64,000 nucleotides of DNA from Rhizobium sp. Q54 (GTDB taxonomy: Bacteria > Pseudomonadota > Alphaproteobacteria > UBA828): the NCBI GenBank assembly GCA_945902735.1, contig CAMDNF010000001.1:10594-74593 (forward strand), written 5' to 3'. The notes beneath the pieces are model-generated. The model was not told where the DNA came from, searched no databases, and worked only from the letters and a program-made list of their open reading frames with translations. Of this stretch, positions 1,428-38,245 are shown in pieces. Each line of letters opens with the position of its first letter. Position 1 is the stretch's first letter. Both the position numbers and the translations under genes were made by a program.

Positions 1428-2570
<1,143 letters not shown>

Positions 2571-3185
2571 TTAAGAACTTTGCAGGAACACGCGAATGGG
2601 CGCGAAGGAGCGCCGATGATGGGGCGTGATACCAAATTGCACGAGGCCGGCGCGATGCTCGGCCGTGCCATAGCCGGCATTGCGCTCCCAGCCATAGCCA
2701 GGGTGTGCCGTGCCCAGCGAGGCCATCAGCCGGTCGCGCGTGACCTTGGCGATGATCGAGGCGGCGGCGATTTCGAGCACCAAGGCATCGCCGCCGATCA
2801 CGGGCGTGGCCGGGCAGGGCAAAGTGGGCAGGCTATTGCCATCGACCAAGGCGCGGCGTGGGACCGTATCGAGGGCATCAACCGCGCGCTGCATGGCGAG
2901 GTGAGTGGCCCGTAAAATATTGAGCGCGTCGATTTCATCAACACTGGCGGAACCGACACCAATCGAGGCGTAGGGCGCGAGCGCGTCAAACAACATCTCA
3001 CGCGTGGCGGCGCTGAGCTTTTTCGAATCATCAATGCGGCGTGCGATCGCTTCGGGCAGTTCACCCTTGAGCATCACAGCGGCCGCAACCACCGGCCCAG
3101 CCCATGGTCCGCGCCCGACCTCGTCAAGGCCGGCGACATGGTTTTCATCCAGGCTGGCGCGTTGAAGCGCGACTCGGCGTCCCAT
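2571..3185 (-). CDS. rnhB: ribonuclease HII
   Basis: 204 aa; [21 protein letters not shown]-terminal motif, DDSKKLS, and overall RNase HII collinearity. Confidence 0.9.
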
Positions 3186-3236
3186 GGCCGAAGCCTAGCA
3201 CCGGGTAAGATTGTCGGCTCGGCAAACGACTCAACC

Positions 3237-3310
3237 CCCTCATGCTTCGACAGGCTCAGCATGAGGGATGCTATATTTCGCCTCATCCTGAGCTTGTCGA
3301 AGGATGAGGC
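3237..3310. repeat. hairpin repeat family R1, copy 2 (two hairpins)
   Basis: cctcatgcttcgacaggctcagcatgaggg ... cctcatcctgagcttgtcgaaggatgagg, between rnhB and the radical-SAM pseudogene. Confidence 0.55.
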
Positions 3311-3479
3311 CACGGTACCGCCGCGCGCTTTGGTCAGAGCAGGCTGAGTTGATCGCCGGGGCGTGGCGGGCGATGAAAACGCGTGGTATCGAGCGCGGGG
3401 CGTTTCTGGTTGAGGCCAAGGCGCGCGCAGGCGAGCTCGAAGCGCCGGCGCATCAGCGCGGCATAGGGCCCGGTGCCGG

Positions 3480-4433
3480 TCATGCGCGTGCCGAATTCGC
3501 TTTGGTAAAGCCCACCGCCCGCATTTCGCGCACCAGGTTCAGCACGTGCTTCGCGCGTCCAGGGGCGTGGGTGCGCAACCATTCCTCAAACAGATCTTTG
3601 ATTTCAAGCGGCAGGCGAAGCGCGATATAGGCGGCCTCGCGGGCGCCGGCGGCGTGCGCGGCCTCAAGGATCGTTTCCATCTCGGCGTCGGTCAGGCCCG
3701 GAATGCAGGGCGCGACCATCACGCCGCTCGGCACGCCGGCGTCATTAAGTTGGCGGATCGCGGCGAGCCGTTTTGACGGGGTCGAGGCGCGCGGCTCAAG
3801 CTTGCGGGCGAGCGCGCCATCCAGCGTGGTGACCGAAAGCGCGACGGTGACCAGCCCCTTCGCCGCCATCGGCGCCAAAATATCGATGTCGCGGGTTACC
3901 AGCGCCGATTTCGTGGTGATGCTCAACGGGTGATCGTGCGCGGCCAGCACGTGCAAAATCGAGCGCGTGATTTCCAATCGCTTCTCGGTCGGCTGATAAG
4001 GATCGGTATTGGTGCCGAGCGCGATGAATTGGCAGCGATAGCTCGGCTTAGCGAGCTCGGCTTCCAGAATTTTTGCCGCGTCGGGTTTGAAAAACAATTT
4101 GCTCTCGAAGTCCTGTCCCGGCGATAGACCGAGATACGCATGGGTCGGGCGCGCATAGCAATAAACGCAGCCATGCTCGCAGCCCCGGTAGGGATTGATC
4201 GAGCGATCGAACGGAATATCCGGCGAATCATTCTAGGCGATTACGCTCCGGCTGGTATCGGGCCTGAGCTCGGTACGGAGTGGGGGAAGATCTTCCTCCA
4301 GATTGCCCCACCCATCGTCGATGGCGTCCGTGGCATGGCGCTCAAAACGCCCGGCCCGATTGCTGGCCGCGCCACGGCCCTTGCGCACCAGGCGCGCTTC
4401 GTCGTTGGCGGGATGGTCCTTGAGCTCAGTCAC
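3480..4433 (-). pseudogene. radical SAM protein (PA0069/SplB-like family) interrupted by an in-frame amber codon
   Basis: Track ORFs 4233..4433 and 3480..4097 are in the same frame, separated by a single TAG (plus-strand cta at 4233-4235). Translation reads ...[38 protein letters not shown]..., a CxxxCxxC radical-SAM cluster, then LGTNTDPYQP...AHDHPLSITTKS. Confidence 0.7.
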
Positions 4434-4500
4434 CGCGAAACTCTAATCTCATCCCTGAACGAATCAAGAACTATGAGGCGGTTTCCCGCGCCGACCGTGG

Positions 4501-5202
4501 GTGCTATGCGGAGGCGTGCTCACGCTCGATCTCTCGGTCGTCATCCCAAGCCTGAACGCCGGTGCCTCGCTTGGCGCGACGCTCGCGGCGTTGCCGGCGG
4601 GGCTTGAGGTGATCGTGGTCGATGGCGGCTCAAGCGATGCCACCATCGAGATCGCGCGCGCGGGCGGTGCGCGTGTCGTCTCAGCCCCGCGCGGGCGCGG
4701 TACGCAGCTGAGGCATGGCGCCGAGGACGCGCGGGCCAGCTGGTTGTTGTTTTTGCATGCCGATACGGTGCTGGCGCCGAATTGGACCGAGGCCGCGCGC
4801 GGCTTCATGACCAATGCAGCCAATCAGCAACGCGCCGCGTGTTTTCGCTTGGCGCTCGACGATGCGCGTTGGATAGCGCGATGGCTGGAGCGCATCGTGG
4901 TGTGGCGCACGCGCGCATTGGGTTTGCCTTATGGCGATCAGGGCTTGTTGATATCGCGGGCGCTCTATGAATTGCTCGGCGGCTATCGGCCGCTTCCGAT
5001 CATGGAGGATGTCGACCTCGTGCGTCGCATCGGGCGGCGACGCCTTACAAGACTCGACGTTTCCGCGCGCACCTCGGCGGTTCGTTATCGCCAGGGCTAT
5101 ATGGCGCGTTCATTGCGCAATCTCTGCTGCCTCGCGCTCTATTATGTTGGTGTGTCGCCTGCGCTCATCGCTCGCTTCTATGAGGGGCGCCAACGCCCAT
5201 GA
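4501..5202 (+). CDS. family 2 glycosyltransferase (TIGR04283-like)
   Basis: 233 aa; LSVVIPSLNAGASL, VIVVDGGSSDAT and YGDQGLLISRALYELLGGY are GT2 hallmarks. Overlaps the downstream DUF2064 gene by 4 nt (ATGA). Confidence 0.7.
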   Translation: MLCGGVLTLDLSVVIPSLNAGASLGATLAALPAGLEVIVVDGGSSDATIEIARAGGARVVSAPRGRGTQLRHGAEDARASWLLFLHADTVLAPNWTEAARGFMTNAANQQRAACFRLALDDARWIARWLERIVVWRTRALGLPYGDQGLLISRALYELLGGYRPLPIMEDVDLVRRIGRRRLTRLDVSARTSAVRYRQGYMARSLRNLCCLALYYVGVSPALIARFYEGRQRP

Positions 5203-5798
5203 TCCTGCCGCGCCATTTGATCGTGTTCACACGGCCTGCGCGCTTGGGTGCGGTTAAGACGCGGCTCGCCGCCGGCATCGGCACAAGCGAGGCCTGGCGC
5301 TTTCATCGTCGTACGGTCAGGACATTGCTTATGAAGGTCGCTCGCGATACGCGCTGGCGCACCTGGCTCGCTCTGCCTCCTGAGGCGATCGAGCAAAATG
5401 ATCGCTCCTGGCCGATCGATCTACCACGGCTCGATCAGGGCGAGGGCGATATCGGCCAGCGCATGGCGCGCAGCTTCGATCAATTACCGCCGGGGCCGGC
5501 GGTGCTGATCGGTGGCGATATTCCCTCGATCGAGCCCTTTCATATCGCTGAGGCATTTGAGGCGTTGGGTGCGGCGGAAATTGTGTTTGGTCCGGCGGCG
5601 GATGGCGGATTTTGGCTGGTCGGTTTTGCACGCCGTGGACGGCGGCTCGATCCGTTCAGTGGTGTGCGATGGTCAACCGAACATGCGCTCGCCGATGCGC
5701 GCGCCCACTTGCCGCGCGATACGCGCGTGGCGTTGGTCGAGACTTTGGCGGATGTCGATGACGCGGCGGCTTATGAGCGATGGCGCGCCGGTGCTTAG
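5199..5798 (+). CDS. DUF2064 (TIGR04282, CofC-like nucleotidyltransferase-fold) protein
   Basis: 199 aa; HLIVFTRPARLGAVKTRL...LIGGDIPSIEP...FGPAADGGFWLVGF matches the DUF2064 family, which is usually encoded next to the TIGR04283 GT2. Confidence 0.65.
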   Translation: MILPRHLIVFTRPARLGAVKTRLAAGIGTSEAWRFHRRTVRTLLMKVARDTRWRTWLALPPEAIEQNDRSWPIDLPRLDQGEGDIGQRMARSFDQLPPGPAVLIGGDIPSIEPFHIAEAFEALGAAEIVFGPAADGGFWLVGFARRGRRLDPFSGVRWSTEHALADARAHLPRDTRVALVETLADVDDAAAYERWRAGA

Positions 5799-6337
5799 CT
5801 GACGCGGTCGCGCTCGGTCAAACGCGGCATCAGCTCGACCAAATTGCACGGCCGCCATCTGATATCGAGCTGGAATTTTAGAATTTTCTCCCAGCCATCG
5901 CGGCAGGCGCCGGGTGAGCCGGGCAGCGCAAACAGATAGGTGCCGCCGGCCACACCGCCCGTCGTGCGCGATTGGAGCGTCGAGCTTTGAATTGCGTCGT
6001 AGCTGAGCTGGCGGAACAGCTCGCCAAAGCCTGGAATTTCTTTCTCATAGACGGCCTTGAAGGCTTCGGGCGTGACGTCGCGCCCGGTCACGCCGGTGCC
6101 GCCGGTTGAGATCACGACATCGATCTTGGGATCGGCGATCCAGGTCTTGAGCGCGGCGATGATGTTCGCTTGATCGTCGGTCACGATCTTGCGCGCCGCG
6201 ATCTTGTGGCCGGAGGCCCCGATCAGCTCGACCAATGTGGCGCCGGATTTATCGTCGGCTTCGGTGCGTGTGTCGGAAACCGTCAGGATCGCGATATTGA
6301 CCGGCACGAAGGCCCGGCTCTCGTCGATCTTACCCAT
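5795..6337 (-). CDS. moaB: molybdenum cofactor biosynthesis protein B (MoaB/MogA family)
   Basis: IAILTVSDTRTEADDKSGATLVE...VVISTGGTGVTGRDVTPEA...ALPGSPGACRDGWE. Start chosen at internal MGKIDESRAF; the track ORF extends to 6400. Confidence 0.8.
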   Translation of the reverse strand: MGKIDESRAFVPVNIAILTVSDTRTEADDKSGATLVELIGASGHKIAARKIVTDDQANIIAALKTWIADPKIDVVISTGGTGVTGRDVTPEAFKAVYEKEIPGFGELFRQLSYDAIQSSTLQSRTTGGVAGGTYLFALPGSPGACRDGWEKILKFQLDIRWRPCNLVELMPRLTERDRVS

Positions 6338-8033
6338 TCTTCGCGAGCTTGGGTGCGCTGATGCCTTCATAACGCGGCCAGCGATTGGCCGCGACTTCAT
6401 CGAGCGATGGCGTGGGTTCGCCGAGCCGCATTTTGTAAATCCAATAATCCGCCGAGACGCGCTCGATCATATCGCGCGTCTCGCGAGAGGGCAGCGTCTC
6501 GATGAAAAGGAGCGGGTCGCCCGATTGCCGAGCCTCCTGCCAACGCGATAGCGCGACCGGCCCGGCATTATAGGCGGCGATCAGGTCGAACAGGCCGCCG
6601 CTGATCTCCGGCATCTCGGCCAAATATTCGATATAGCTCTGGCCCAGCGCGATGCTCACTTCGGGTTTGTTGATCGAGGCCGCGTTGACGCCTTTGACGC
6701 CGGCGCGCTTGGCCATGAATTGCGCGGTCGAGGGCATCAACTGCATCACGCCGCTGGCGCCTGACGGGTTTTTCGCACGGGTTTGGAAACCCGATTCACT
6801 GCGGATGAGCGCAAACACCATGGCGCGGTCGAAGGGTCGGCCATTGACCGGCCGCCAATTCGGCATCGGATAGGTTGAGGCGTCGTGGCGCCGGCCATCT
6901 GCCGAGGCCGCTTGCTTGGCAAGCGCGATCTCGAGCGCGGGCGCCTCGAGCAAATGAATGAGGGGCACAAGGGCGCGCCGCATTTCAGGGGCCGCGCGGT
7001 CAATCAGGGTCATCACCAGCGGTTCGGCGCGTTCGAGCTCGCCTGCCTCATAAAGCGCGATCGCGCGGCGGAAGCGCGGCAGATTGCCAATCGCATAAAG
7101 ATCGGTGGTGGTGAGCGGATCGCGGTCCCACATCGGGCGGACCGACATGCCAAGCGAGCGCTGCGCCAAGAGGCCGTAAAAGGTGCGCGAATGTTCAGCC
7201 GCCGCGCCTAACCAGTGGCTAACGAGTTCGGGCTTTTGATCGCGCAAATGGACGCGCGCGGCCCAATAGGCCCCGGCCGCGGCGAGCGCCGCCGGCACGC
7301 CGGCGGTTTCGGCAAGGGTTTCGAAATATTGGCTCGCGCTCTTGTTATTGCCCAATTGGAAGGCGGCGAGGCCCGCGATCCAAGTCGCCTCCGGGCAATC
7401 CGGCGCCTTGGCGAGCGTTTCGATCAGCCCCAAGGCCTCTTTATCGTCGTTTCCGGCAAGCTGCTGCCGCGCGGCACGCAAGGCGGTCGCGCGGCCCGTT
7501 CCGGCGGCGCAAGCGACGTTCTCAATTGCCATAGCGCGCCGCTTGGTTTTGCCATCGCCCGCCACACTGGGTGGTTTCTTGAGGGCGGGCGCCGCGCTCG
7601 GCTTTTTCGAAAGGGCGAGGGCATAGATCGCACTGGCGTCAGGCCCGTCGCCATAACGCTCGAGCCAGTCGACCAATTCGGCATAGCTGGATTTATAACC
7701 GGGCGACAAATAACGCGCGGCCAGCAGGTCGCCGACCAAAATAGGGTCGGCCAGTGCCGGCATAAGCTTATCCGTCTCGGCGTGGTTGCCCTTGCTCACC
7801 AGCGCGAACAGACGACGATAAAGAGCACGATCCGCCTCGGACAGCACGGTCGGCAGGGCGGTCGGCCAGTTCATTTGGGCGGCGCCGGGGTCGAGCGCGG
7901 CGGTGGTCAATTCCTTCGAGGGCTTGCTGGGCGAGCCGGGATAGGCTTCCCCGGCCCCAATCAGGGCAGCCAGGAAGGCCAGGGCGAAAACGCCCAGGCG
8001 CGCAAATCCAGTTCGCGGTCTTGCTGCCGCCAT
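6330..8033 (-). CDS. soluble lytic murein transglycosylase (SLT domain), secreted
   Basis: 567 aa; N-terminal signal peptide; superhelical repeats; C-terminal SLT catalytic motif ESGFQTRAKNPSGASGVMQLMPSTA...AYNAGP. Confidence 0.85.
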   Translation of the reverse strand: MAAARPRTGFARLGVFALAFLAALIGAGEAYPGSPSKPSKELTTAALDPGAAQMNWPTALPTVLSEADRALYRRLFALVSKGNHAETDKLMPALADPILVGDLLAARYLSPGYKSSYAELVDWLERYGDGPDASAIYALALSKKPSAAPALKKPPSVAGDGKTKRRAMAIENVACAAGTGRATALRAARQQLAGNDDKEALGLIETLAKAPDCPEATWIAGLAAFQLGNNKSASQYFETLAETAGVPAALAAAGAYWAARVHLRDQKPELVSHWLGAAAEHSRTFYGLLAQRSLGMSVRPMWDRDPLTTTDLYAIGNLPRFRRAIALYEAGELERAEPLVMTLIDRAAPEMRRALVPLIHLLEAPALEIALAKQAASADGRRHDASTYPMPNWRPVNGRPFDRAMVFALIRSESGFQTRAKNPSGASGVMQLMPSTAQFMAKRAGVKGVNAASINKPEVSIALGQSYIEYLAEMPEISGGLFDLIAAYNAGPVALSRWQEARQSGDPLLFIETLPSRETRDMIERVSADYWIYKMRLGEPTPSLDEVAANRWPRYEGISAPKLAKNG

Positions 8034-8200
8034 CCTGAGGCTACCTGACTTTCTGTTTTGATCCCCCGCCGGCGATGTTCTTGTGACCCGCCTTGGGAGG
8101 CCTTCTAGCGGTCAGCTTGGCCTCGGGCAACCTGGCAAATGCGTCACACACCGAGGGGCGAGCTGTCGCATCATTGCCACACCCCTAGAGTCTAGTAAAA

Positions 8201-9067
8201 TCAGGCTAAAATTTGATGAATATGGGCTTCGATGTCCAAAAGGTCGCGCCAGGCCTCGCGCTTGGCGGCGCTCTGGCGGAGCAAATAGGCCGGGTGGAAG
8301 ACCGCAATCGTGGGGGTAGGGGTGGCCAAACCGGGTCGGTGGTAGTCGAACCAGCGACCGCGGAGGCGGGTGATCCCCTCGCCCGTATTGAGGAGCGCCT
8401 TGGCCGAGATGCCACCCACGAGGATCAGAATTTTGGGTGCAATCAGTTCGATCTGACGCTCGACAAAGGGCTGGCAGGTGGCGATTTCATCGGCGGTTGG
8501 CGTTCGGTTGCCGGGAGGCCGCCAGGGCAACACGTTGGTGATATAGACCTTGGTGCGATCGAGCCCGATGGAGCCCAACATGCGGTCCAAGAGCTGGCCG
8601 GCCGGCCCGACAAAAGGCAGGCCCCGGCGGTCTTCTTCCGCGCCGGGCGCCTCGCCGACCAGCATGATGGTGGCGTGCGGATTGCCATCACCGATCACGG
8701 TGGTGGTCGCGGTGCGTTTGAGCGGGCAGGCATCGAAACGGCCCAGCGCGGCACGGAGCTCGTCGAGATTGGCGCAGGCGGCCGCAATCTCGCGGGCGCT
8801 CAAGGCGGCATCGCTCAATGCGATTGGCGCCGCCGGTGCGGCCATCGCGGGCGCCATCGAGACCGGTGGGCGTGGTGGTGGCGCTGGGCTTGGCGCAGCC
8901 GGCGTTCCCACGTTCTGTGCGCTCGGTTGAGCAGCGGGAATCCGGGCTGGTTGCGGCGGCAGGGCGCTCGCGCTCAGCCAATCGATCGGCGTCTCGCCGA
9001 CCGCCATATCGACCCCGGCCTCGACATAAAATGCGAGCAGTGCCCGGTGGTCTTGCGCCATTGTCAT
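8201..9067 (-). CDS. uracil-DNA glycosylase, family 4 (phage-SPO1-polymerase-related)
   Basis: C-terminal domain [31 protein letters not shown]...[15 protein letters not shown]...HPAYLLRQ is the UDG family 4 signature; N-terminal Pro/Ala-rich low-complexity linker. Confidence 0.8.
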
Positions 9068-9207
9068 GGCCGGTGGCTTCGGGGTGGAACAGGTCCCATC
9101 GTTCTTAGATACGCTCGATTGACCGCTTTCGGCAATCGGACCATAAGTGCGCCCGATGGAACGCCGATCGCGCCGTTTCAGAGGCTTGAGCGCCGCGGAG
9201 GGCCAGG

Positions 9208-10845
9208 ATGAGCCGCGAGTCGATGAGCTACGATGTGGTCGTGGTGGGCGGCGGGCCGGCGGGGCTCGCGGCGGCGATCAAACTTAAGCAATTGGCCCAG
9301 GCGGCTGGGCGTGAGCTCAGTGTTACCGTGGTCGAGAAAGGTTCCGAAATTGGTGCCCATATTCTTTCGGGCGCGGTGTTCGAGACCAAGGCGCTGGATG
9401 AGCTGATTCCAGATTGGAAGGCCAAAGGCGCGCCGCTCAGGACGCCAGTCAGCGCCGAGGAATTCAGCGTGCTGACCAAGCGGCGCCGGTTCACCTTTCC
9501 GGCCTGGATGCTGCCGTCCCAGTTGCATAACAAAGGCAATTACATCATCAGCCTCGGCGAGCTTTGTCGCTGGCTCGCCACCGAGGCCGAGGCGCTTGGG
9601 GTTGAGATTTATCCGGGCTTCGCGGCGGCGGAGGTGCTCTATCACCAGGATGGCAGTGTCAAAGGCGTTGCAACTGGCGATATGGGCGTCTCGCGCGAAG
9701 GGGCGCACAAATCGAGCTATCAGCCGGGTATGGAACTCCATGCCAAATACACGCTGTTCGCCGAGGGCGCGCGGGGCTCGCTATCGAAAGAGCTGATCGA
9801 GCGCTTCAAGCTGCGCGCCGATGCGGCGCCGCAGACCTACGGCATCGGTATCAAAGAGATCTGGGAGGTCGAGCCGGCCAAGCATCGGCCCGGCCTCATT
9901 CAGCATAGTTTCGGCTGGCCGCTCGATTCGCGCACCTATGGCGGTAGTTTTCTCTATCACTTCGACACGAATCTGGTGTCGGTCGGTTTTGTCGTCGCGC
10001 TCGACTATCAGAACCCCTACCTCTCGCCGTTTGACGAGTTTCAGCGCTTCAAGACCCATCCGGCGATTCGTCCAACGTTCGAAGGCGGTAAGCGCATTGT
10101 CTATGGCGCGCGGGCGATCAATGAGGGCGGCTGGCAATCGATACCGAAGCTCAGCTTTCCGGGTGGTGCACTCATCGGTTGTGCCGCCGGCTTCGTCAAC
10201 GTGCCCAAGATCAAGGGCAGCCACAATGCGATGAAGACCGGCATGTTGGCCGCCGAGGCCGTGTTCGCGGCGTTGCAAGCCGGGCGGGACGGTCATGACG
10301 AACTCGTCGATCTAACCAAAACCGTGCGCCGCTCGTGGGTTGGGCGCGAGTTGCGCGAGGTGCGCAATTGCCGCCCGGCCTATCGGTTCGGCCTCGTGCT
10401 CGGCACGCTCATTAGCGGTTTCGAACTCTGGTCGCGCGGCCTTTTGCCATGGACGCTCGGGCACCATGAAGACCATCGCGCGCTCAAGCCGGCGGCGCGG
10501 AGCCGGAGAATCGACTATCCGAAGCCCGATGGCGTGGTCAGTTTCGACAAGCTCTCCTCGGTGTTCATTTCGAACACCAATCACGAGGAAGATCAGCCGG
10601 TACATTTGAAGCTGCGCGATCCAAGTGTGGCGATTCGCCTCAATTTGTCGCTTTATGACGCGCCCGAGCAGCGCTATTGCCCTGCCGGCGTTTACGAAAT
10701 CGTCACTGAAGCCGCGGGGCCGAGGCTGCAAATCAACGCGCAAAACTGCGTGCACTGCAAAACCTGTGATATCAAAGACCCGAGTCAAAACATCAATTGG
10801 ACGGTTCCCGAGGGCGGCGGCGGCCCAAATTATCCCAATATGTGA
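9208..10845 (+). CDS. electron transfer flavoprotein-ubiquinone oxidoreductase (ETF-QO)
   Basis: 545 aa; FAD-binding [11 protein letters not shown]; C-terminal 4Fe-4S ferredoxin motif CPAGVYE...[12 protein letters not shown]. Confidence 0.9.
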
Positions 10846-31228: not shown

Positions 31229-31996
31229 TCAGCGGGGCTCCGGCGCGTCGTCGCGGAGCGTGTTGCGCGCGCCAATGGCCACCGCCGGGCCCGGCATCGC
31301 CACCAGCACGCGGCGGCGCACGCGCTTCGCCGCGGGGCGCGCGCCATAAACCTGCTTGGTCGCCTCGACCAGTACGACACCGCCAAACGGCTTGCCGAAA
31401 ATCGGCCCAAGGCGCTGCCAGAGCGCGCTCGTGCGTAAGATGAGCCGCGCTTGAATGGGCGGCAGATAGAGCGCGCCTTCATGACGCACGGGGTCGAAAT
31501 GATTTTCGCGCAACAGCCGCGTCAATTGCGAGCCGCTGAATGGCCGGCCATGGCCGAAGGGCGTGCGCTCGACACGCGCCCAAAGGCTCCGCCGGTTCGG
31601 CACCAGCGCGAGGAGGCGCCCGCCGGGCCTTAGCACGCGCCAGACCTCGCGCATCAAAGGTTCGGTCTGCTCGGCGAATTCGATCGCGTGCACGAGCAAA
31701 ATCCGATCGATCGATTCATCGGGTAGCGGCAGCTCGCCTTCCTCGGTGATCGCGACCAGGCGCTTGCCATCGCTCGGCCAGGCCAAAACGCCTTGGCCTG
31801 CCGGCATGAAGGCGATGGTGCGCACGGCCTCCTCGCGAAAGAGGCCGAGAAAGGGCGTGGCATAGCCGAGCCCAAGCACGGATTCGCCGGTCACCTTCGG
31901 CCAGAGCGCGCGCAGCTCGCGCCGGATCACGCGCCGCGCGACCTGGCCGAGGTGCGATTCATAGAAGGCGTTCAGATCGACGACATCCGGGCGCAT
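31229..31996 (-). CDS. class I SAM-dependent methyltransferase
   Basis: 255 aa; VLGLGYATPFL (motif I-like), LRPGGRLLALVPN. Confidence 0.7.
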   Translation of the reverse strand: MRPDVVDLNAFYESHLGQVARRVIRRELRALWPKVTGESVLGLGYATPFLGLFREEAVRTIAFMPAGQGVLAWPSDGKRLVAITEEGELPLPDESIDRILLVHAIEFAEQTEPLMREVWRVLRPGGRLLALVPNRRSLWARVERTPFGHGRPFSGSQLTRLLRENHFDPVRHEGALYLPPIQARLILRTSALWQRLGPIFGKPFGGVVLVEATKQVYGARPAAKRVRRRVLVAMPGPAVAIGARNTLRDDAPEPR

Positions 31997-32088
31997 GGGG
32001 AATCATAGCACGACCTAGAGTTTTGGTTAGTCGGCAGCGGAAGATGGCAAGCTCTGCCGCAACATTATGATCGATTTGTTTTGGTCTG

Positions 32089-32215
32089 CCCCACCCGGCA
32101 ACGCAAGCGTTGCCGCCCTCCCCCTCAAGGGGGGAGGGGAAGGAAATTCGGATTGTCGTGGTGCGTACCTTTTACCCCCTCCCCCTCGACGGGCGAGAGT
32201 TGGGGTGGGGGTGAC
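32089..32215. repeat. REP-like nested-palindrome intergenic element (family R2), copy 1
   Basis: cACCCGGcAACGCAAGCGTTgCCGCCCTCCCCCTCAAGGGGGGAGGGGa plus a second G/C-rich hairpin; homologous to 57708-57765. Confidence 0.6.
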
Positions 32216-32235
32216 TGCGAAAGCGACTTGGTGCC

Positions 32236-32267
32236 CCGCCTCAATACATATGCGTGCGGCGGTTCAT
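32236..32267. repeat. left direct repeat (duplicated phaB 3' end) flanking the insertion
   Basis: ccgcctcaatacatatgcgtgcGGCGGttcat matches 34334-34365 (ccgcctcaatacatatgcgtgcCGCCGttcat) except for a 6-bp inverted core. Reverse complement encodes MNRRTHMY*, a remnant of the phaB C-terminus MNGGTHMY*. Confidence 0.7.
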
Positions 32268-32998
32268 CCAGCCTGCCTTCCGGTACCATCGACCGCCATC
32301 TCCAGCACATCCAGAAACGACGAATCGTATGTCTCATCGACGTGGCGCTGGTTCCACAGCCCTGATTCGCGCACGAGACTGCGGTCGGAGCCTTGCCCGA
32401 GCCACCCGAGGGATGGCGGATCGAGGGCTGGGCGGTCGAAATTGCTCAGCAGCGCAATGCCATTGCGCTCGATAAACCCGCGTAGACTTTGGGGCCCGGG
32501 ATCGTCGTTGATGTCGAGCCAGAGGAACGGCATGGCCCCGATATATCGCGTCACGGCCTGCTCGACCGGCGCTTCGGCTTTGTTCAACGCTTCTCGATCG
32601 ATGCCTAACGCCGCCGCTGCCTTGGTGGCGTCGCTCTTCACGCCCCAGGAAGGGCAAAGCGGGGCCTTCCCTGCCGCGATCAGCGCCTGACCAATCAGCA
32701 GACGGAAGATCGAGCCGCGGTGATTCCCTCCGCCTGACGAAGGTCCGCGATGCTGTCCGAGCCGCTGGCCGAGCGTCGAACGCGAACCCGCACGAAGCGC
32801 GTGCGTGCCCACACGCACGACGCGCGGCCCGGCGCCGCTTTCTTGGCGAACTTCGGACGGCTCGAAGAACAGATAGACTCCGCGCTGGGGCCAATCACGA
32901 TACGTGCCAAAGTTCGCGAGCGTGCGAGTTCCACCGGCGCGTTGCTGCAGGCGGTCGAGCAGGCCGTAGAAACGCAGGAGATCTTCGAGGCGGCTCAT
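32264..32998 (-). CDS. GIY-YIG-like nuclease family protein (244 aa)
   Basis: RGVYLFFEPSE...VVRVGTHAL...STLGQRLGQHRG...GNHRGSIFRLLIGQAL resembles the degenerate GIY-YIG module of the widespread 'GIY-YIG nuclease family protein' group. Start overlaps the upstream gene's stop (ATGA). Confidence 0.6.
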   Translation of the reverse strand: MSRLEDLLRFYGLLDRLQQRAGGTRTLANFGTYRDWPQRGVYLFFEPSEVRQESGAGPRVVRVGTHALRAGSRSTLGQRLGQHRGPSSGGGNHRGSIFRLLIGQALIAAGKAPLCPSWGVKSDATKAAAALGIDREALNKAEAPVEQAVTRYIGAMPFLWLDINDDPGPQSLRGFIERNGIALLSNFDRPALDPPSLGWLGQGSDRSLVRESGLWNQRHVDETYDSSFLDVLEMAVDGTGRQAG

Positions 32999-34332
32999 TC
33001 CTCTTCGGATAACCAGGCCAACTGCTCGCCGCGAGTGAGATGTTCCATCGGGGCTTCCACAACCAACCCATGTCGTCGCAGGGGCTCGATTAGAAACTCG
33101 CGGTAGCGTGCTCCGGCTAAGAACACAACGCGTCGATAGTTGGCAGTGGCCGGCAGAAGCCTTTCGAGAACCTTGGCCGCCCAGGCCTTCCGCACGGCGA
33201 CTCCGAGCGTATTCAGTGTGTAATCATAGGGAGCGATCACTTCGCCGGGATCGACGAGGCCGTATTGCGACGAGAGAAGCAACCACCGTGCGCCGCTCGC
33301 TTCAACGAGATTCCGCGCCTTGCGAAACAGGGGAGACGTATAGAGTTCTCGCGCAGGCGCAGCGTGTGGCAGTTTACTTTTGACGCAAGATATCAAGACA
33401 AGCGCATCGGAGAGATCGAGAGTGCTGCTTGCTCGGGGCGCCGCAGGCTCGGGCATAGGTGCTGGAACTGAGGCCGTGAGTCGTTCAGATGAAGGCGGGG
33501 CGCTAAGCCCAAACCTAAAGTAGACGTTCGCACCGTTCGGCGGACCTTTGCGTTCTATGACCTTGACGCCAGCGACGTCGTTGAATTTCCTGCTGCCGAT
33601 TGCGCTGCAAACTGCCGGCATGGCGCTGCTCAAACCCATCGCCTTATGTATGTCACCAACGCGAATGGTGAGCTCCTTGTGACCAGCCGCCCTCGCGGGA
33701 GCGACAAGGCGATCGATGACGAACTGACGAATCCGATCGGCCTGACCGATATCGCGTCGATCGGTCCGCTTGCTTGATGTCTCAATCGGCTGGGTCGGAC
33801 TTTGTGAGTCTATTTTCTCGTGCCGTGGCCTGAAATTTTCGGTTGCTTCACTTTGGTTGACGTCTGCCACGGGCTGCTGAATCTCGCCGCCCGCTTCTTC
33901 TTCGTCGAGATGGAGCCGGCGCAGTGCCTTTTTCATCGTTTCGACGTCATTGGCCTCGGGCGCCGAAATCGCGGCCAGAAGACGCCCTGAGGTATCAAGC
34001 GCGCGGTAAGCGTCGTCGGCCGAGAAATGGCCCTGGTGTGCCCACCGGTTCCGAATGTCTATTAGTTCGTTGACGAGACTGCGTTCGGCTCTGCCGAAGC
34101 GGGGACGGAAAACTTCGCCCCAACTTCGATCCATGATGACCAACAGAGCGGCGACGTCGTAGGTCGCATCGGCCTTTTCACTACGAAGCCGGGTGTCGGC
34201 CAGTATGTCTTGGATTTGTTCGGCCCAGCCCTTGCCGAATTGAGCCTTGAACTCGCGTTCGATGAACGGTCGCAAACCATCCCGCAGCCACCCTAGGGCT
34301 TTGCCGACTCGCTCATGATTGGAGGTGCTCAT
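32995..34332 (-). CDS. Swt1-like HEPN domain protein with two additional uncharacterised domains (445 aa)
   Basis: N-terminal ~135 aa: WGEVFRPRFGRAERSLVNELIDIRNRWAHQGHFSADDAYRALDTSGRLL carries the Rx4H motif and layout of Swt1-type HEPN. Central region: LTIRVGDIHKAMGL...VCSAIGSRKF. C-terminal region: LVLISCVKSKLPHAAPARELYTSPLF...WLLLSSQYGLVDPGEVIAPYDYTLN (DUF6884-like). Confidence 0.7.
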   Translation of the reverse strand: MSTSNHERVGKALGWLRDGLRPFIEREFKAQFGKGWAEQIQDILADTRLRSEKADATYDVAALLVIMDRSWGEVFRPRFGRAERSLVNELIDIRNRWAHQGHFSADDAYRALDTSGRLLAAISAPEANDVETMKKALRRLHLDEEEAGGEIQQPVADVNQSEATENFRPRHEKIDSQSPTQPIETSSKRTDRRDIGQADRIRQFVIDRLVAPARAAGHKELTIRVGDIHKAMGLSSAMPAVCSAIGSRKFNDVAGVKVIERKGPPNGANVYFRFGLSAPPSSERLTASVPAPMPEPAAPRASSTLDLSDALVLISCVKSKLPHAAPARELYTSPLFRKARNLVEASGARWLLLSSQYGLVDPGEVIAPYDYTLNTLGVAVRKAWAAKVLERLLPATANYRRVVFLAGARYREFLIEPLRRHGLVVEAPMEHLTRGEQLAWLSEEE

Positions 34333-34333
34333 A

Positions 34334-34365
34334 CCGCCTCAATACATATGCGTGCCGCCGTTCAT
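34334..34365. repeat. right direct repeat (authentic phaB 3' end)
   Basis: See left repeat; overlaps the last 8 codons and stop of phaB. Confidence 0.7.
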
Positions 34366-35064
34366 GGTGACGGTCGAGCCCGTGGTCCAGGCCGCTTTGT
34401 CATCGACCAGGAACAGCACCGCATGGGCGACTTCTTCGGGCAGGCCGAAGCGGCGCACCGGCGATTTATCCAGGATCTTCTCGCGAATGCGCGCCGGCGC
34501 GTCGCGCATCATATAGGTGTCGAGATAGCCGGGCGCGATGTTGTTGACCGTGATGCCGTATTTCGCGGCTTCGAGCGCGAGGCCCTTGGTGAAGCCGTGC
34601 ATGCCGGCTTTGGCCGCGACGTAATTGACCTGGTTGAGCTGGCCGGCCTGGCCGTTCATCGAGCCGATATTGACGATGCGGCCCCAGCGCTTCTCGATCA
34701 TCGCGGGGTAAACCTGCTTGCACATGTAGAAGACCGAATCGAGATCGATGCGGATCACTCTGTGCCATTGTTCGACGGTCATGTTCTCGAACTTGGCTTC
34801 CGAGACCGCGCCGGCGTTGTTGACCAGAATGTCGATCGCGCCCAAATCTTTCACCACTTGGGCGTGGCCGCGCGCGCAGGAATCGAAATCGCCGACGTCC
34901 CATTTATAGGCCTTGATGCCGGTCTCGGCGCTGAATGCCTGGGCGAACTTGTCGTCGCTCGCATAATTGACCGCGACTTTATGGCCGGCGGCCTTGAGCG
35001 CGACCGCGATCGCCGCGCCAATGCCGCGACTGCCGCCCGTAACAAGTGCAATGCGTGAGGTCAT
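34339..35064 (-). CDS. phaB: acetoacetyl-CoA reductase (SDR), paralog 1
   Basis: 241 aa; IALVTGGSRGIGAAIA, NNAG, YVAAKAGMHG (YxxxK), C-terminal TMNGGTHMY. Confidence 0.9.
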   Translation of the reverse strand: MTSRIALVTGGSRGIGAAIAVALKAAGHKVAVNYASDDKFAQAFSAETGIKAYKWDVGDFDSCARGHAQVVKDLGAIDILVNNAGAVSEAKFENMTVEQWHRVIRIDLDSVFYMCKQVYPAMIEKRWGRIVNIGSMNGQAGQLNQVNYVAAKAGMHGFTKGLALEAAKYGITVNNIAPGYLDTYMMRDAPARIREKILDKSPVRRFGLPEEVAHAVLFLVDDKAAWTTGSTVTMNGGTHMY

Positions 35065-35091: not shown

Positions 35092-35814
35092 TCAATACAT
35101 GTGCTGGCCGCCATTCACCGAAACCGTCGAGCCGGTGATGAAACCGGCGTCGTCGGCCACCAGGAACAGCACGGTGCGCGCGATGTCGTCCGCGCGCCCC
35201 AAGCGCCCGACCGGAATGCGCGCGATGATTTTTTCCAAAATATCGGCCGGCACGGCGCGTACCATGTCGGTGTCGACATAGCCGGGCGCGACCGCGTTGG
35301 CCGTGATGTTGAAGCGCGCGCCCTCTTGCGCGAGCGCCTTGGTGAAGCCGTGAATGCCCGATTTCGCGGCGGCGTAATTGACCTGGCCATATTGGCCCGC
35401 CTGGCCGTTGATCGAGCCGATATTGACGATGCGGCCGAATTTTTTCTCGCGCATGCCGTTCACGACAAGGCTGCATAGATTGAAGCACGAGCTCAGATTA
35501 GTATCGAGCACCGCGCGCCATTGCTCGGGCGTCATGCGGAAGATCGTCGAATCGCGCGTGATGCCGGCATTGTTGACCAGAATTTCAACCGGCCCGAGCT
35601 CGGCGGTGATTTTGGCGATGCCGGCCTTGCAGGCGTCGTAATCGGCGACGTCCCATTTAAAGGTTTTGATGCCGGTCTCGGCGTTGAAGCGCTTCGCGGC
35701 CTCGTCATTGCCGGCATAGGTCGCGGCAACCTTGTAGCCGGCCTCGTGCAAACGACGTGAAATCGCTTCGCCAATGCCTCGTGTGCCGCCGCTGACCAAT
35801 GCGACCCGTGCCAT
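35092..35814 (-). CDS. phaB: acetoacetyl-CoA reductase (SDR), paralog 2
   Basis: 240 aa; VALVSGGTRGIGEAIS, YAAAKSGIHG, C-terminal VNGGQHMY. Tandem with paralog 1. Confidence 0.9.
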   Translation of the reverse strand: MARVALVSGGTRGIGEAISRRLHEAGYKVAATYAGNDEAAKRFNAETGIKTFKWDVADYDACKAGIAKITAELGPVEILVNNAGITRDSTIFRMTPEQWRAVLDTNLSSCFNLCSLVVNGMREKKFGRIVNIGSINGQAGQYGQVNYAAAKSGIHGFTKALAQEGARFNITANAVAPGYVDTDMVRAVPADILEKIIARIPVGRLGRADDIARTVLFLVADDAGFITGSTVSVNGGQHMY

Positions 35815-35944: not shown

Positions 35945-37117
35945 TTATTTCGACGTTTCGAGAATCCAGCGCGCGAGCGGTCCATAAAGCGCGGTGTTGG
36001 CGCGTGGGCTCGCGATCATGCCGATATGACCAAGGGGCGGGCGCATGGCGCGGGCGCCTGGGATCGAATGCGCCAGCACTTCGGCCGTGGGCGGCGGCAC
36101 GATGCGGTCCGCCTCCGGAACCACCACGAGCGCGGGCATGGCAAGGCGCTCAGGGTGCACCGCCTCGCCGCCGACTCTATAGGTGCCGCGTCCCGGCTGG
36201 TTTTCGTCATACCAGCCGGTCAAACATTGGCGCGCCACGGGGCCGGCGAGCGGCACGCCGTCATTAAGCCAGTCCTCGAGCGCGACGAAGCCTTGCGCCG
36301 CCGCGCTCGTGGGGTCGAGCGTGGCGAAGCGCACGAATTTGCGCGCCGCCAAGAGGGGGTCGAGCCCGCTGAACAGGCTTTGAATGAGATCGGTCGGTAA
36401 CAGACCGAAAAGGTTGATCGCGTTGTCGAGCATGGCGCGATGCGCCTGAAGGAGGGTGCGCTGGGTACCGCCATCGGCCGCGAAATCCCAAGGCGTCGCC
36501 AAAAGGCCGAGCGCGTTCACCTTGTCGGGCGCGCGGAGTGCCAGCGGCAGGGTCAACAGCCCGCCCATGCAATAGCCGATCAAGGCCATGGGACCGCCAT
36601 AAGAGGCGACCGCCGCGTCGAGCGCCTTGGCGAGCCGGCCGAGGATGTAGTCGTCCAGCGAAAAGCGCTGCTCGACCGCGCCGGGTGCCGCCCAATCGAG
36701 CAGGAAGCATCTGATGCCGTCGCGGTTGAGGGCGCGCATCAGGCTGCGCTCGGGCGCGAGATCGAGAATATAGGCGCGGTTGATCAGGGACGGCACGAAC
36801 AGCGCGGCTGCCTTGGTCGGCCCGGCTGGCCGGTAATCGAGCAAACGCGAGGTGCCCTCGGCCCACAGCACGGGCGGGTCGATCAGGCTTCGGCGATAGG
36901 GATGGGCGCGGTAGGCCGCGATGCCGTCGAGAAAGAGCCCAAAGCGCCGTCTGGTTTCGCGCTCGAGTGCCGTGAGCAGGGCGTCGGGCGGTGCCTTGGC
37001 CAGGGCGTCGGCGAGCGCGGTCGCGTCAGCCGCCAGCCCGTTTTTCCAATTGATCGAGTTGCTCTTCGCAAGCGGCAAGGCGCCGAGTGAGCTCATCCAT
37101 GTGGCGCTCGCCAGCAT
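35945..37117 (-). CDS. phaC: class III-type PHA synthase PhaC-like alpha/beta hydrolase
   Basis: Lipase-box G-x-C-x-G-G (LIGYCMGGLLTL); collinear with Allochromatium-type PhaC (LLDYRP.., FLLDW, SLDDYI). Start uncertain: the track ORF extends to 37192 and overlaps the upstream small ORF. Confidence 0.65.
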   Translation of the reverse strand: MLASATWMSSLGALPLAKSNSINWKNGLAADATALADALAKAPPDALLTALERETRRRFGLFLDGIAAYRAHPYRRSLIDPPVLWAEGTSRLLDYRPAGPTKAAALFVPSLINRAYILDLAPERSLMRALNRDGIRCFLLDWAAPGAVEQRFSLDDYILGRLAKALDAAVASYGGPMALIGYCMGGLLTLPLALRAPDKVNALGLLATPWDFAADGGTQRTLLQAHRAMLDNAINLFGLLPTDLIQSLFSGLDPLLAARKFVRFATLDPTSAAAQGFVALEDWLNDGVPLAGPVARQCLTGWYDENQPGRGTYRVGGEAVHPERLAMPALVVVPEADRIVPPPTAEVLAHSIPGARAMRPPLGHIGMIASPRANTALYGPLARWILETSK

Positions 37118-37469
37118 GAGGTGCAACGGAAGGGGCCTCGGTCCTTGCCGGGGGGCCAGGGTCGGCGCGGCGTGGCTGGTCATGCGGCGCACCGGGTCCG
37201 GGGCCCGGTTGGGGGCCGGGGTCGGGTTTGGGCTCGGCGGCGGGTCCGGGTTTGGGCCATAAAGTGGTGACCTGGCTTGCCTTCAAGAATGCCTGCGCCG
37301 CGCCGATCTGGCTTTCGATCAGCTGGCCGAGCAAGCGATTGGTCTCGGGGTCGCTGGCCAACGCGGCCACATGGCTTTGCCACAGATCGAGGAACCGGCG
37401 CGCCAACGCCTCCAGGCTGGGTGGCTCGCCCGTTTTGGGGGTATCCGAATCGGTTTTGGCGGTGGCCAT
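37026..37469 (-). CDS. hypothetical Pro-rich protein with C-terminal coiled coil (possible PHA-synthase-associated partner)
   Basis: 147-aa ORF; PKPGPAAEPKPDPGPQPGPGPGAP low-complexity region; C-terminal ELTRRLAACEEQLDQLEKR. Could be spurious in this GC-rich DNA. Confidence 0.3.
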   Translation of the reverse strand: MATAKTDSDTPKTGEPPSLEALARRFLDLWQSHVAALASDPETNRLLGQLIESQIGAAQAFLKASQVTTLWPKPGPAAEPKPDPGPQPGPGPGAPHDQPRRADPGPPARTEAPSVAPHAGERHMDELTRRLAACEEQLDQLEKRAGG

Positions 37470-37624
37470 GGCGCGAGGATAACGGCAAGCCCATGGCGTG
37501 ATCCAGCCTCAAGGGAGCGGCTTTGCCGCGCCGCACTGTCAAATTTGCGCGTTGCAGCATTTCCTGCCAGACTAAGCCCTAAGTTAGGAGGGGGCGCCCT
37601 CCGCCCCGGGAAGGATTGCGCCAG

Positions 37625-38245
37625 ATGAGCGATACAAGCACCAGCGCCACGCCGCCCGGCGAAACCATCGTGATCAAGAAATACGCGAATCGCCGTCTCT
37701 ATAACACGGCGAGTTCAAGCTATGTGACGCTTGAGCATCTCGCCCAGATGGTGCGCGATGGTCAGGAGTTCGTGGTTCAAGATGCGAAGACCGGCGATAA
37801 CATTACGCATCAGGTGTTGACTCAGATCATCGTCGAAGAAGAGGCCAAGGGCCATACCATGTTGCCGATCGGCTTTCTGCGTCAGTTGATCCGGCTCTAT
37901 GGCGATTCATTGCAGGCCTTCGTGCCGCGCTATCTGGAAACCTCGATGGATAATTTCTCGAAGAATCAGGGCCAGATTCGCGAGCAGATCGAACGCACCT
38001 TCGGCGGCATTTTTCCGTTCGGCGAAATCGAACGCCTGAGCCGGCAGAACCTCGGCGTGTTTCAGCGCGCCATGAGCATGTTCACGCCCTTCGCCACCAC
38101 CCAGGCCGGCAAGGCGGCGAGCAATGGCGCGGACAGCGCCCCGGCCGAGGAACGCGAGCGCGAAGATATTTCGACGCTCAAAGATCGCATGAACCAGATG
38201 CAGGCCGAGCTCGATCGCTTGGTCCGCCGACGCGAGAGCGAATAA
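37625..38245 (+). CDS. phaR: polyhydroxyalkanoate synthesis repressor PhaR
   Basis: IVIKKYANRRLYNTASSSYVTLEHLAQMVRDGQEFVVQDAKTGDNITHQVLTQII is the PhaR N-terminal DNA-binding domain signature. Confidence 0.9.
   Translation: MSDTSTSATPPGETIVIKKYANRRLYNTASSSYVTLEHLAQMVRDGQEFVVQDAKTGDNITHQVLTQIIVEEEAKGHTMLPIGFLRQLIRLYGDSLQAFVPRYLETSMDNFSKNQGQIREQIERTFGGIFPFGEIERLSRQNLGVFQRAMSMFTPFATTQAGKAASNGADSAPAEEREREDISTLKDRMNQMQAELDRLVRRRESE

Follow-up and report, generated by a model that had tools for sequence, protein, structure and literature searches.

A HEPN-fused copy of the candidate phage defence cassette PDC-M57 inserted between housekeeping genes of Rhizobium sp. Q54

Among described systems, the closest to the locus reported here is PDC-M57, one of 145 listed phage defence candidates from a 'guilt-by-embedding' screen for cassettes that sit inside BREX, DISARM and type I restriction-modification (R-M) operons, where it is entered as cassette CAS_00183, 'assign as candidate' (Payne et al. 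2024, bioRxiv 10.1101/2024.01.29.577857). We analysed a 64,000-nt stretch of Rhizobium sp. Q54 DNA (the window, on whose numbering all gene coordinates are given) that carries two adjacent genes, A and B, and, judged by its protein profiles, this locus is a copy of PDC-M57. An initial annotation made from the DNA letters had proposed the pair as an undescribed system without a name; because both proteins match the PADLOC models for PDC-M57, the pair is not undescribed, being named and catalogued already as a candidate. New here are the HEPN-fused architecture of gene A, a link to a DUF499-associated HEPN clade, fusions between DUF6884 and the partner nuclease family, and a documented filled and empty site.

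Several known protein families bear on the parts of this locus. DUF6884 domains have a YaaA-type fold with a positively charged DNA cleft, their relative YaaA is a DNA-binding protein of oxidative stress, and an AlphaFold3 model seats a flipped base at the conserved DUF6884 residues (PMC11701544). DpdC belongs to the same superfamily and acts by converting a base in duplex DNA (PMC10164549). HEPN domains with an Rx4-6H motif are RNases of abortive infection and of R-M-linked suicide (PMC3710099), and in the 'Ava_2192' clade, predicted to be catalytically active, a Swt1-like HEPN is fused to a DUF499 AAA+ ATPase within R-M-type operons (Anantharaman et al. 2013, PMC3710099). In the literature, we found no paper on YaaA-like domains paired with GIY-YIG.

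The gene pair and its match to PDC-M57

Both open reading frames (ORFs), and the ATGA by which they overlap and which would couple their translation, are as the initial annotation had them, and the features of the pair are as follows.

32995-34332, minus strand: gene A, 445 aa, composed of HEPN_Swt1, linker, winged helix and DUF6884 (ORF list, Pfam, PADLOC, homologue architectures)
33964-34302, minus strand: HEPN_Swt1 domain of gene A, aa 11-123 (Pfam, E = 1e-34, 119.7 bits)
34036-34053, minus strand: Rx4H motif RNRWAH, aa 94-99, with R94 and H99 (motif reading)
33751-33963, minus strand: linker of gene A, aa ~124-194 (alignment of HEPN-fused homologues)
33505-33750, minus strand: winged-helix (winged helix-turn-helix, wHTH) domain of gene A, aa ~195-276
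33004-33399, minus strand: DUF6884 domain of gene A, aa 312-443 (Pfam, E = 2.5e-45, 154.4 bits)
33373-33390, minus strand: S-C-V-K-S-K, aa 315-320, in DUF6884
33259-33276, minus strand: LSSQYG, aa 353-358, in DUF6884
32995-32998, minus strand: ATGA overlap, stop codon of A on start codon of B (TCAT on the plus strand)
32264-32998, minus strand: gene B, 244 aa, GIY_YIG_3-family predicted nuclease, PDC-M57B (ORF list, PADLOC)
Within gene B, key residues: GVY, aa 40-42; RVG, aa 62-64; R79-x3-H83; GNHRGSIFR, aa 91-99; E177; WNQRHV, aa 215-220

Gene A matches PADLOC PDC-M57A (PDLC04712, E = 1e-34) over aa 310-444 and profile positions 3-135 of 138, and gene B matches PDC-M57B (PDLC04714, E = 2.1e-87) end to end, over aa 1-238 and profile positions 1-233 of 238, with A followed by B, adjacent and on the same strand, as in the cassette order FAM_03160>>FAM_00294. 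The locus and PDC-M57 agree in their two protein families and in how these are ordered and oriented, and PADLOC would assign that name to it. The locus departs from PDC-M57 in two respects: the PDC-M57A model is a 138-residue DUF6884 domain only, whereas gene A adds an N-terminal HEPN_Swt1 domain and a winged helix, and this copy sits in a housekeeping gene row related to polyhydroxyalkanoate (PHA), whereas PDC-M57 of the screen sits in a BREX, DISARM or R-M operon.

Structurally, gene A bears out both terminal domains that had been proposed for it. The Swt1-type HEPN match lies far above the Pfam gathering cut-off (119.7 versus 27.5 bits), and the R-N-x3-H of the domain is retained in all 16 HEPN-fused homologues that were aligned, among which the linker that follows is poorly conserved, gapped and variable in length. 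At the C-terminus, the DUF6884 match (PF21818) is likewise far above its cut-off (154.4 versus 30 bits), and both signature motifs as defined in PMC11701544 are present, CxxxK as C316-VKS-K320 and LSAxxG as L353-SSQY-G358, with C316, K318, K320, L353 and S354 invariant across 32 sequences. DUF6884 shares its fold and charged cleft with YaaA (DUF328); the match of this domain to the DpdC profile is weak and partial (E = 3.5e-6, aa 320-375, 56 residues of a 312-position profile), the CxxxK motif is specific to DUF6884, and the partner here is a predicted nuclease, not a base-exchange enzyme. We also considered membership in the Dpd 7-deazaguanine system itself and rejected it, given the partial DpdC match and flanking genes that include neither DpdA (TGT-like) nor DpdB (ParB-like).

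For the middle of gene A, the initial annotation had suggested an N-domain of the Mrr/McrB type. That it is a distinct conserved domain stands: the winged helix at aa ~195-276 is strongly conserved among homologues and is the usual N-terminus of the commonest partner protein, which has ~250 aa and consists of a winged helix and then DUF6884. The more specific assignment is not borne out. Residues ~195-276 had no match in a Pfam scan, a PDB sequence search with a profile of the winged helix plus DUF6884 gave chance-level matches only, and a modified-DNA reader of the Mrr_N/McrB_N type was set aside, having no family match by sequence or by a specific fold, in favour of a generic winged helix.

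Gene B had been described as a degenerate GIY-YIG-like protein, and this description agrees with its family annotation and residue pattern. All 120 listed gene B homologues carry PF26468 (GIY_YIG_3, hereafter GIY3) in precomputed annotations; gene B itself had no match in local Pfam (E<=1) and NCBIfam searches, the classical GIY-YIG model PF01541 included. A PDB sequence search with the gene B profile (E<=10) gave only chance-level matches (E 0.3-0.7) to the unrelated ORF134, and Foldseek against the PDB gave nothing significant; among structural matches of modest score, Eco29kI ranked second and the GIY-YIG domain of UvrC third. In an alignment of 86 family members, the GIY-motif tyrosine of strand 1 (Y42 of G40-V-Y42) is invariant in 85, the single exception being a gap; R79 and H83 on the first helix (aa 76-84), and E177 on the helix at 172-184 that follows the third strand (157-162), are invariant or nearly so. 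The YIG-motif tyrosine is replaced, its position reading R62-V-G64 with R62 invariant, and the family has further invariant motifs, GNHRGSIFR and WNQRHV. Compared with the GIY-YIG restriction and repair nucleases R.Eco29kI, T4 EndoII, the UvrC N-domain and I-TevI, gene B has an invariant arginine where they have the YIG tyrosine, together with a helical insert of ~60 residues and the extra invariant motifs. Membership of the GIY-YIG fold is probable; R79 and E177 would, from their positions, be catalytic residues, and the conserved pattern as a whole suggests a nuclease.

Linkage, fusions and the recruitment of HEPN

Relatives of gene B were sought by a pattern scan of 185,579 genomes, one per species, in which only close relatives are detectable, and of 584 pattern-matching stretches 579 were confirmed. 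Their hosts are Alpha- and Gammaproteobacteria, Chloroflexota, Acidobacteriota, Planctomycetota, Binatia and Marinimicrobia. Among the best 80 loci of these 579, a DUF6884 gene lies directly upstream of GIY3 on the same strand in 58, and in a further seven the two domains form a single polypeptide, so that they are adjacent or fused in 65 of the 80; the abutting or overlapping arrangement of A and B recurs at loci L001 and L005. A search of 1.84 billion cluster representatives (E<=1e-3) returned 2,645 GIY_YIG_3 clusters, and the longer ones include fusions in both orders, DUF6884-GIY3 and GIY3-DUF6884, as well as one GIY3 with a YaaA-type domain; P0237 is another DUF6884/GIY3 fusion. The two genes are thus a conserved unit, as had been supposed, and we read the fusions and adjacency as strong evidence that the DUF6884 and GIY3 domains work together physically.

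HEPN, in contrast to this core, is a variant feature. HEPN_Swt1 occurs in only ~20 of the 120 best gene A relatives, and a HEPN fusion in only three of the best 80 genome loci (L017, L023 and L027). At L001, a separate HEPN_RiboL-PSP gene stands just upstream of the pair, and at L027 a HEPN-like N-terminus is found in the downstream gene as well, joined to a small accessory domain. HEPN has been recruited repeatedly around the DUF6884/GIY3 core: fused in the window, L017, L023 and L027, separate in L001, and downstream in L027.

Evolutionarily, the window HEPN, when searched alone, is closest to small stand-alone HEPN_Swt1 proteins (63-67% identity). Three genes for such proteins were looked up (L090, L091 and L092), and all three are directly upstream of DUF499 genes, in islands that hold DUF1156, GmrSD, methyltransferase, UvrD-helicase or MNT/HepT genes. 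The window HEPN therefore resembles the small HEPN_Swt1 proteins that adjoin DUF499, the setting of the Ava_2192 type, and differs from that type in being fused to wHTH-DUF6884 and neither fused to nor beside a DUF499 ATPase. Because its closest relatives belong to this DUF499-adjacent clade, gene A looks like a restriction-island RNase module fused onto the DNA-binding subunit of PDC-M57. A working analogy is offered by the R-M-linked suicide RNases of the PrrC/RloC type, which, like the window pair, join restriction-type DNA targeting with a possible abortive RNase; unlike them, genes A and B have no ABC-ATPase or anticodon-nuclease domain, and a restraint of HEPN by the DNA-targeting part is without support here.

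Several smaller observations concern the composition of the cassette. The GIY_YIG_3 fusions found among the longer clusters (P0363, P0368, P0390, P0404, P0375, P0371 and P0395) join it to DUF6884 (in both orders), to a YaaA-type domain or to DUF7662, and one GIY_YIG_3 fusion carries a complete Mur-ligase module. On haloarchaeal plasmids, GIY3 lies beside genes for DUF955 (ImmA/IrrE-type) and an HNH endonuclease instead of DUF6884, for example at L088 (Haloarcula taiwanensis plasmid pNYT1, 6924-9566), which suggests alternative partners. In five loci, a third small ORF of ~125 aa that ends in CGxCDP and has no Pfam match follows 3' of GIY3; at L027 its domain is fused behind the HEPN-like N-terminus, it is absent from the window, and it may be an optional third component. 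Its positions are:

L045, 2155-2532: third small ORF
L009, 7594-8013: third small ORF
L011, 946-1257: third small ORF
L069, 7575-8135: third small ORF
L027, 7847-8560: third small ORF

The cassette decays in some lineages, since the DUF6884 or GIY3 gene is fragmented by frameshifts or stops in several relatives (L016, 6119-7645; L073, 1353-2132; L077, 6899-7708; L009, 6520-7001); unlike these, the window copies of A and B are intact.

Neighbourhoods of relatives and proposed function

PADLOC models (E<=1e-8) were run on the genes flanking the pair, up to the second on either side, and the control was a set of 135 proteins encoded next to the housekeeping SDR gene in metagenomes. Around loci L007-L050, the 148 neighbouring proteins matched 50 PADLOC families, including GmrSD-like (seven matches), AbiEii, DUF499, HmaC, a type II methyltransferase and PDC-M05A/S07/S09/S53/S68, and by Pfam they include integrases, TraD and MobA/MobL. 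Part of this signal has a common source. A segment represented by L019 (Brucella, 2540-9744), 5.9-9.7 kb and mostly ~7.2 kb long, is common to other alphaproteobacterial genera at 85-99% nucleotide identity, and with its DUF6884 and GIY3 genes it is also present in Agrobacterium, Bradyrhizobium, Breoghania, Brevundimonas and two metagenome-assembled genomes (L020, L022, L025, L026, L031 and L032), which indicates recent transfer between genera. A GmrSD-like gene follows 3' of the pair in most loci of this type, with TraD and MobA matches in the same neighbour set, and the seven GmrSD-like matches probably belong to this one transferred element. Elsewhere, some single settings look defence-like or mobile: at L001 the pair is surrounded by HEPN_RiboL-PSP, REase-ARP and HNH genes, at L005 it lies in an integrase/AlpA island, and P0122 is near a resolvase and a T5orf172 gene.

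Functionally, we posit that the locus is a defence module of the PDC-M57 type that combines DNA sensing and cutting with an RNase arm. In gene A, the winged helix would act with the YaaA/DpdC-like DUF6884 domain to bind DNA and probe a flipped-out base, the probed base being a modified or abnormal one of an invading phage or plasmid; its recognition would license the GIY-YIG partner encoded by gene B to cut the invader's DNA, and HEPN would contribute a further arm, abortive infection by RNA cleavage and growth arrest. We infer DNA sensing by DUF6884, the nuclease and RNase activities and the anti-phage role from domain identities, from the conservation of catalytic-type residues, and from linkage and fusions, and we regard the chances that such a module works roughly as modelled as evenly balanced. 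The appeal of the model is that it can be tested, with DUF6884 tied by fold and motifs to DNA binders that work on a flipped base and locked to a nuclease by adjacency and fusions. If it is validated, DUF6884 would gain a function, a nuclease directed by modified bases could be of practical use, and this natural three-arm variant (predicted RNase, DNA reader and predicted DNase) could reveal how the sensing of DNA is linked to abortive infection.

A number of observations weigh against a defence function. Literature searches found no paper that mentions PDC-M57, no experiment on it, and no paper that links DUF6884 with defence. The window copy is not in a defence island; only housekeeping genes surround it (two SDRs, a PhaC-like hydrolase, PhaR, Methyltransf_11, PCuAC and GluQ-RS). 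Among relatives, defence neighbours are clear for the closer ones and at background level around the more distant ones, for which ~4 of the 135 proteins neighbouring L051-L086 match, equal to the control (~4 of 135). The pairing is also incomplete: 15 of the best 80 loci have no detectable DUF6884 next door (~17% of GIY3 genes are alone), and the GIY3 nuclease does not strictly need DUF6884. Finally, YfjM, a DUF6884 protein of Bacillus subtilis, was pulled down on DNA with abasic or ribonucleotide lesions, which points to repair (PMC11701544).

This last result, together with the binding of DNA by YaaA in oxidative stress, is the starting point for an accessory repair module, in which DUF6884 would recognise a damaged or non-canonical base (abasic, ribonucleotide or oxidised) and the GIY-YIG protein would nick beside it in the manner of the UvrC N-domain, whose GIY-YIG domain is the third-best structural match. 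Many more distant copies among housekeeping genes fit such a role. However, confirmed relatives number only ~579 in 185,579 species genomes (by a scan that finds close relatives only), the pair was acquired horizontally, HEPN RNases are recurrently fused or linked to it, its neighbours can be of restriction type, the cassette is embedded in BREX, DISARM and R-M operons, and an RNase toxin domain has no obvious use to a repair enzyme. We consider repair very unlikely as the function of the pair.

An R-M-like or addiction module would assign the roles differently, with DUF6884 modifying or shielding host DNA and the GIY-YIG protein acting as a toxic endonuclease that cuts unprotected DNA, such that loss of the protector kills the cell. 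Enzymes of the DpdC family change a base chemically within DNA, and the DUF6884 domain has a weak match to DpdC; its conserved cysteine and lysine suggest catalysis; Eco29kI, the second-best structural match of gene B, is a GIY-YIG type II restriction enzyme like several others; and a protector gene that comes first and is translationally coupled fits the control of a toxin. The solitary GIY3 genes are hard to square with this, since the 14 that could be aligned retain every invariant residue, which argues against an obligate toxin that needs DUF6884 for protection. Further, neither a cofactor or donor domain nor Dpd-type partner genes are found nearby, and the adjoining methyltransferase is of a small-molecule type (Methyltransf_11) and is present at the empty site too. 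We regard this explanation as unlikely. For the same two reasons, a classical type II R-M system that includes the neighbouring methyltransferase (31229-31996) was rejected, the enzyme being of the small-molecule type and present at the L107 empty site.

Insertion between housekeeping genes

Returning to the defence cassette that we favour, its insertion was recognised from a metagenomic contig (L107) that has the same surroundings and lacks the pair. An exact-match metagenome search for the left junction had given no match, and the empty site was then reached via the SDR protein. By blastn, L107 positions 1-518 correspond to window 34854-34337 and 519-2222 to window 32015-30331, and the SDR gene of L107 is 89% identical to that of the window at the DNA level. 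The features of the insertion are:

32016-34336, no strand: segment missing at the L107 empty site, 2,321 bp, comprising A, B, the left repeat and ~220 nt of hairpin sequence (blastn, junction alignment)
34334-34365, no strand: right direct-repeat copy, 32 nt, made of the last 27 nt of the SDR (phaB-like) gene, stop codon included, plus 5 nt
32236-32267, no strand: left direct-repeat copy, 30 of 32 nt identical, holding the stop codon of gene B (32264-32266)

Window 32016-34336 is an insertion between the SDR (phaB-like) and methyltransferase genes. At L107, only ~25 nt lie between the stop codon of the SDR gene and the start codon of the methyltransferase gene (junction alignment), so that the cassette has split what seems to be an operon. 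The 32-nt direct repeat brackets both ORFs, and the ATG of gene A (34332) lies 1 nt from the right copy, which supplies a GAGG. GC content at third codon positions (GC3) is 0.63 in A and 0.71 in B, versus 0.74-0.82 in eight neighbouring genes. Given the empty site in L107 and the lower GC3, the cassette is of foreign origin and was acquired horizontally, in line with the small inserted island that the initial annotation had seen.

Scans for promoters, terminators and Rfam families over 31.5-35.2 kb found nothing on the coding strand and nothing at gathering score; the A-B cassette, which is on the same strand as both flanking genes, is probably promoterless and transcribed by read-through. The insert holds only the two ORFs, with no terminal inverted repeats, recombinase or transposase seen, and a transposon, an integrative element and an integron cassette were each rejected on the absence of a recombinase of its own, of terminal inverted repeats and of an attC-like site.

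Left and right flanks of 76 loci were compared by blastn-short, with mismatched pairs as control. In four of the 76, the cassette lies between two imperfect, directly oriented copies of a stretch of target sequence (23-57 nt, 80-96% identical); these pairs score 38-48 bits, where the controls reach at most 30:

Window, 32236-32267 and 34334-34365: 32 nt, 94%, SDR gene 3' end
L009, 6480-6536 and 8059-8115: 57 nt, 84%, hrcA 5' untranslated region and start codon
L045, 289-342 and 2534-2587: 54 nt, 80%, polA 3' end
L057, 6362-6384 and 7857-7879: 23 nt, 96%

Because the duplicated piece is a gene edge in the window, L009 and L045, the housekeeping gene stays intact. With only 4 of 76 loci showing them, such repeats were rejected as a general trait of the cassette; where they occur, they may stem from a long duplication of the target, from a circle integrated by one crossover at a short homologous patch, or from insertion assisted by a nuclease. 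Insertion of this kind may relate to why such cassettes occur 'embedded' in other operons.

A further account takes the pair as a selfish mobile cassette, in which the GIY-YIG protein would serve as an endonuclease for homing or insertion that spreads the unit into gene boundaries, its target would be recognised by DUF6884 with the winged helix, and any effect in defence would be secondary. The insert does contain little beyond two ORFs and falls exactly on a gene boundary, with a 32-nt target repeat on its flanks; similar repeats from different targets rise above the control in L009, L045 and L057, and the distribution is patchy, with recent transfer between genera. Yet the repeats are confined to those four loci, terminal inverted repeats and a recombinase are lacking, and classical homing leaves no target duplications; nor is there multi-copy spread in the sampled genomes, where the best 80 loci are on 80 different contigs, or any copy in the phage collection, which was searched and held no GIY3 relative. 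We judge this account rather improbable. The same repeats enter a bolder version of the defence module, which would make it a new mechanistic class of nucleic-acid immunity: a YaaA/DpdC-like base-flipping sensor of modified or abnormal bases, wired to a DNase and a HEPN RNase, in a promoterless cassette that would enter gene boundaries and duplicate 23-57 bp of its target with no recombinase of its own. That prospect is, in our view, a slim one.

For the defence module itself, the pair of empty and filled sites shows a discrete mobile unit that has entered an ordinary operon in frame with the expression signals there, and it may explain embedded cassettes; should the defence reading fail, the locus would still be a tidy case of horizontal insertion.

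Two features of the surroundings complete the description. Between the left repeat and the methyltransferase gene, window 32016-32235 is ~220 nt of GC-rich, hairpin-forming sequence resembling repetitive extragenic palindromes (REP-like), also missing at the L107 empty site; an Rfam scan of it gave a weak match to whalefall-1 (E = 0.07), below threshold, and it has two copies of CCCTCCCCCTC...GGGGGAGGG, at 32116-32136 and 32177-32197. On the other side, tandem paralogous SDR (acetoacetyl-CoA-reductase-like) genes (34339-35064 and 35092-35814) adjoin a PhaC-like hydrolase gene (35945-37192) and a PhaR gene (37616-38245), and the cassette follows these PHA genes on their downstream side.

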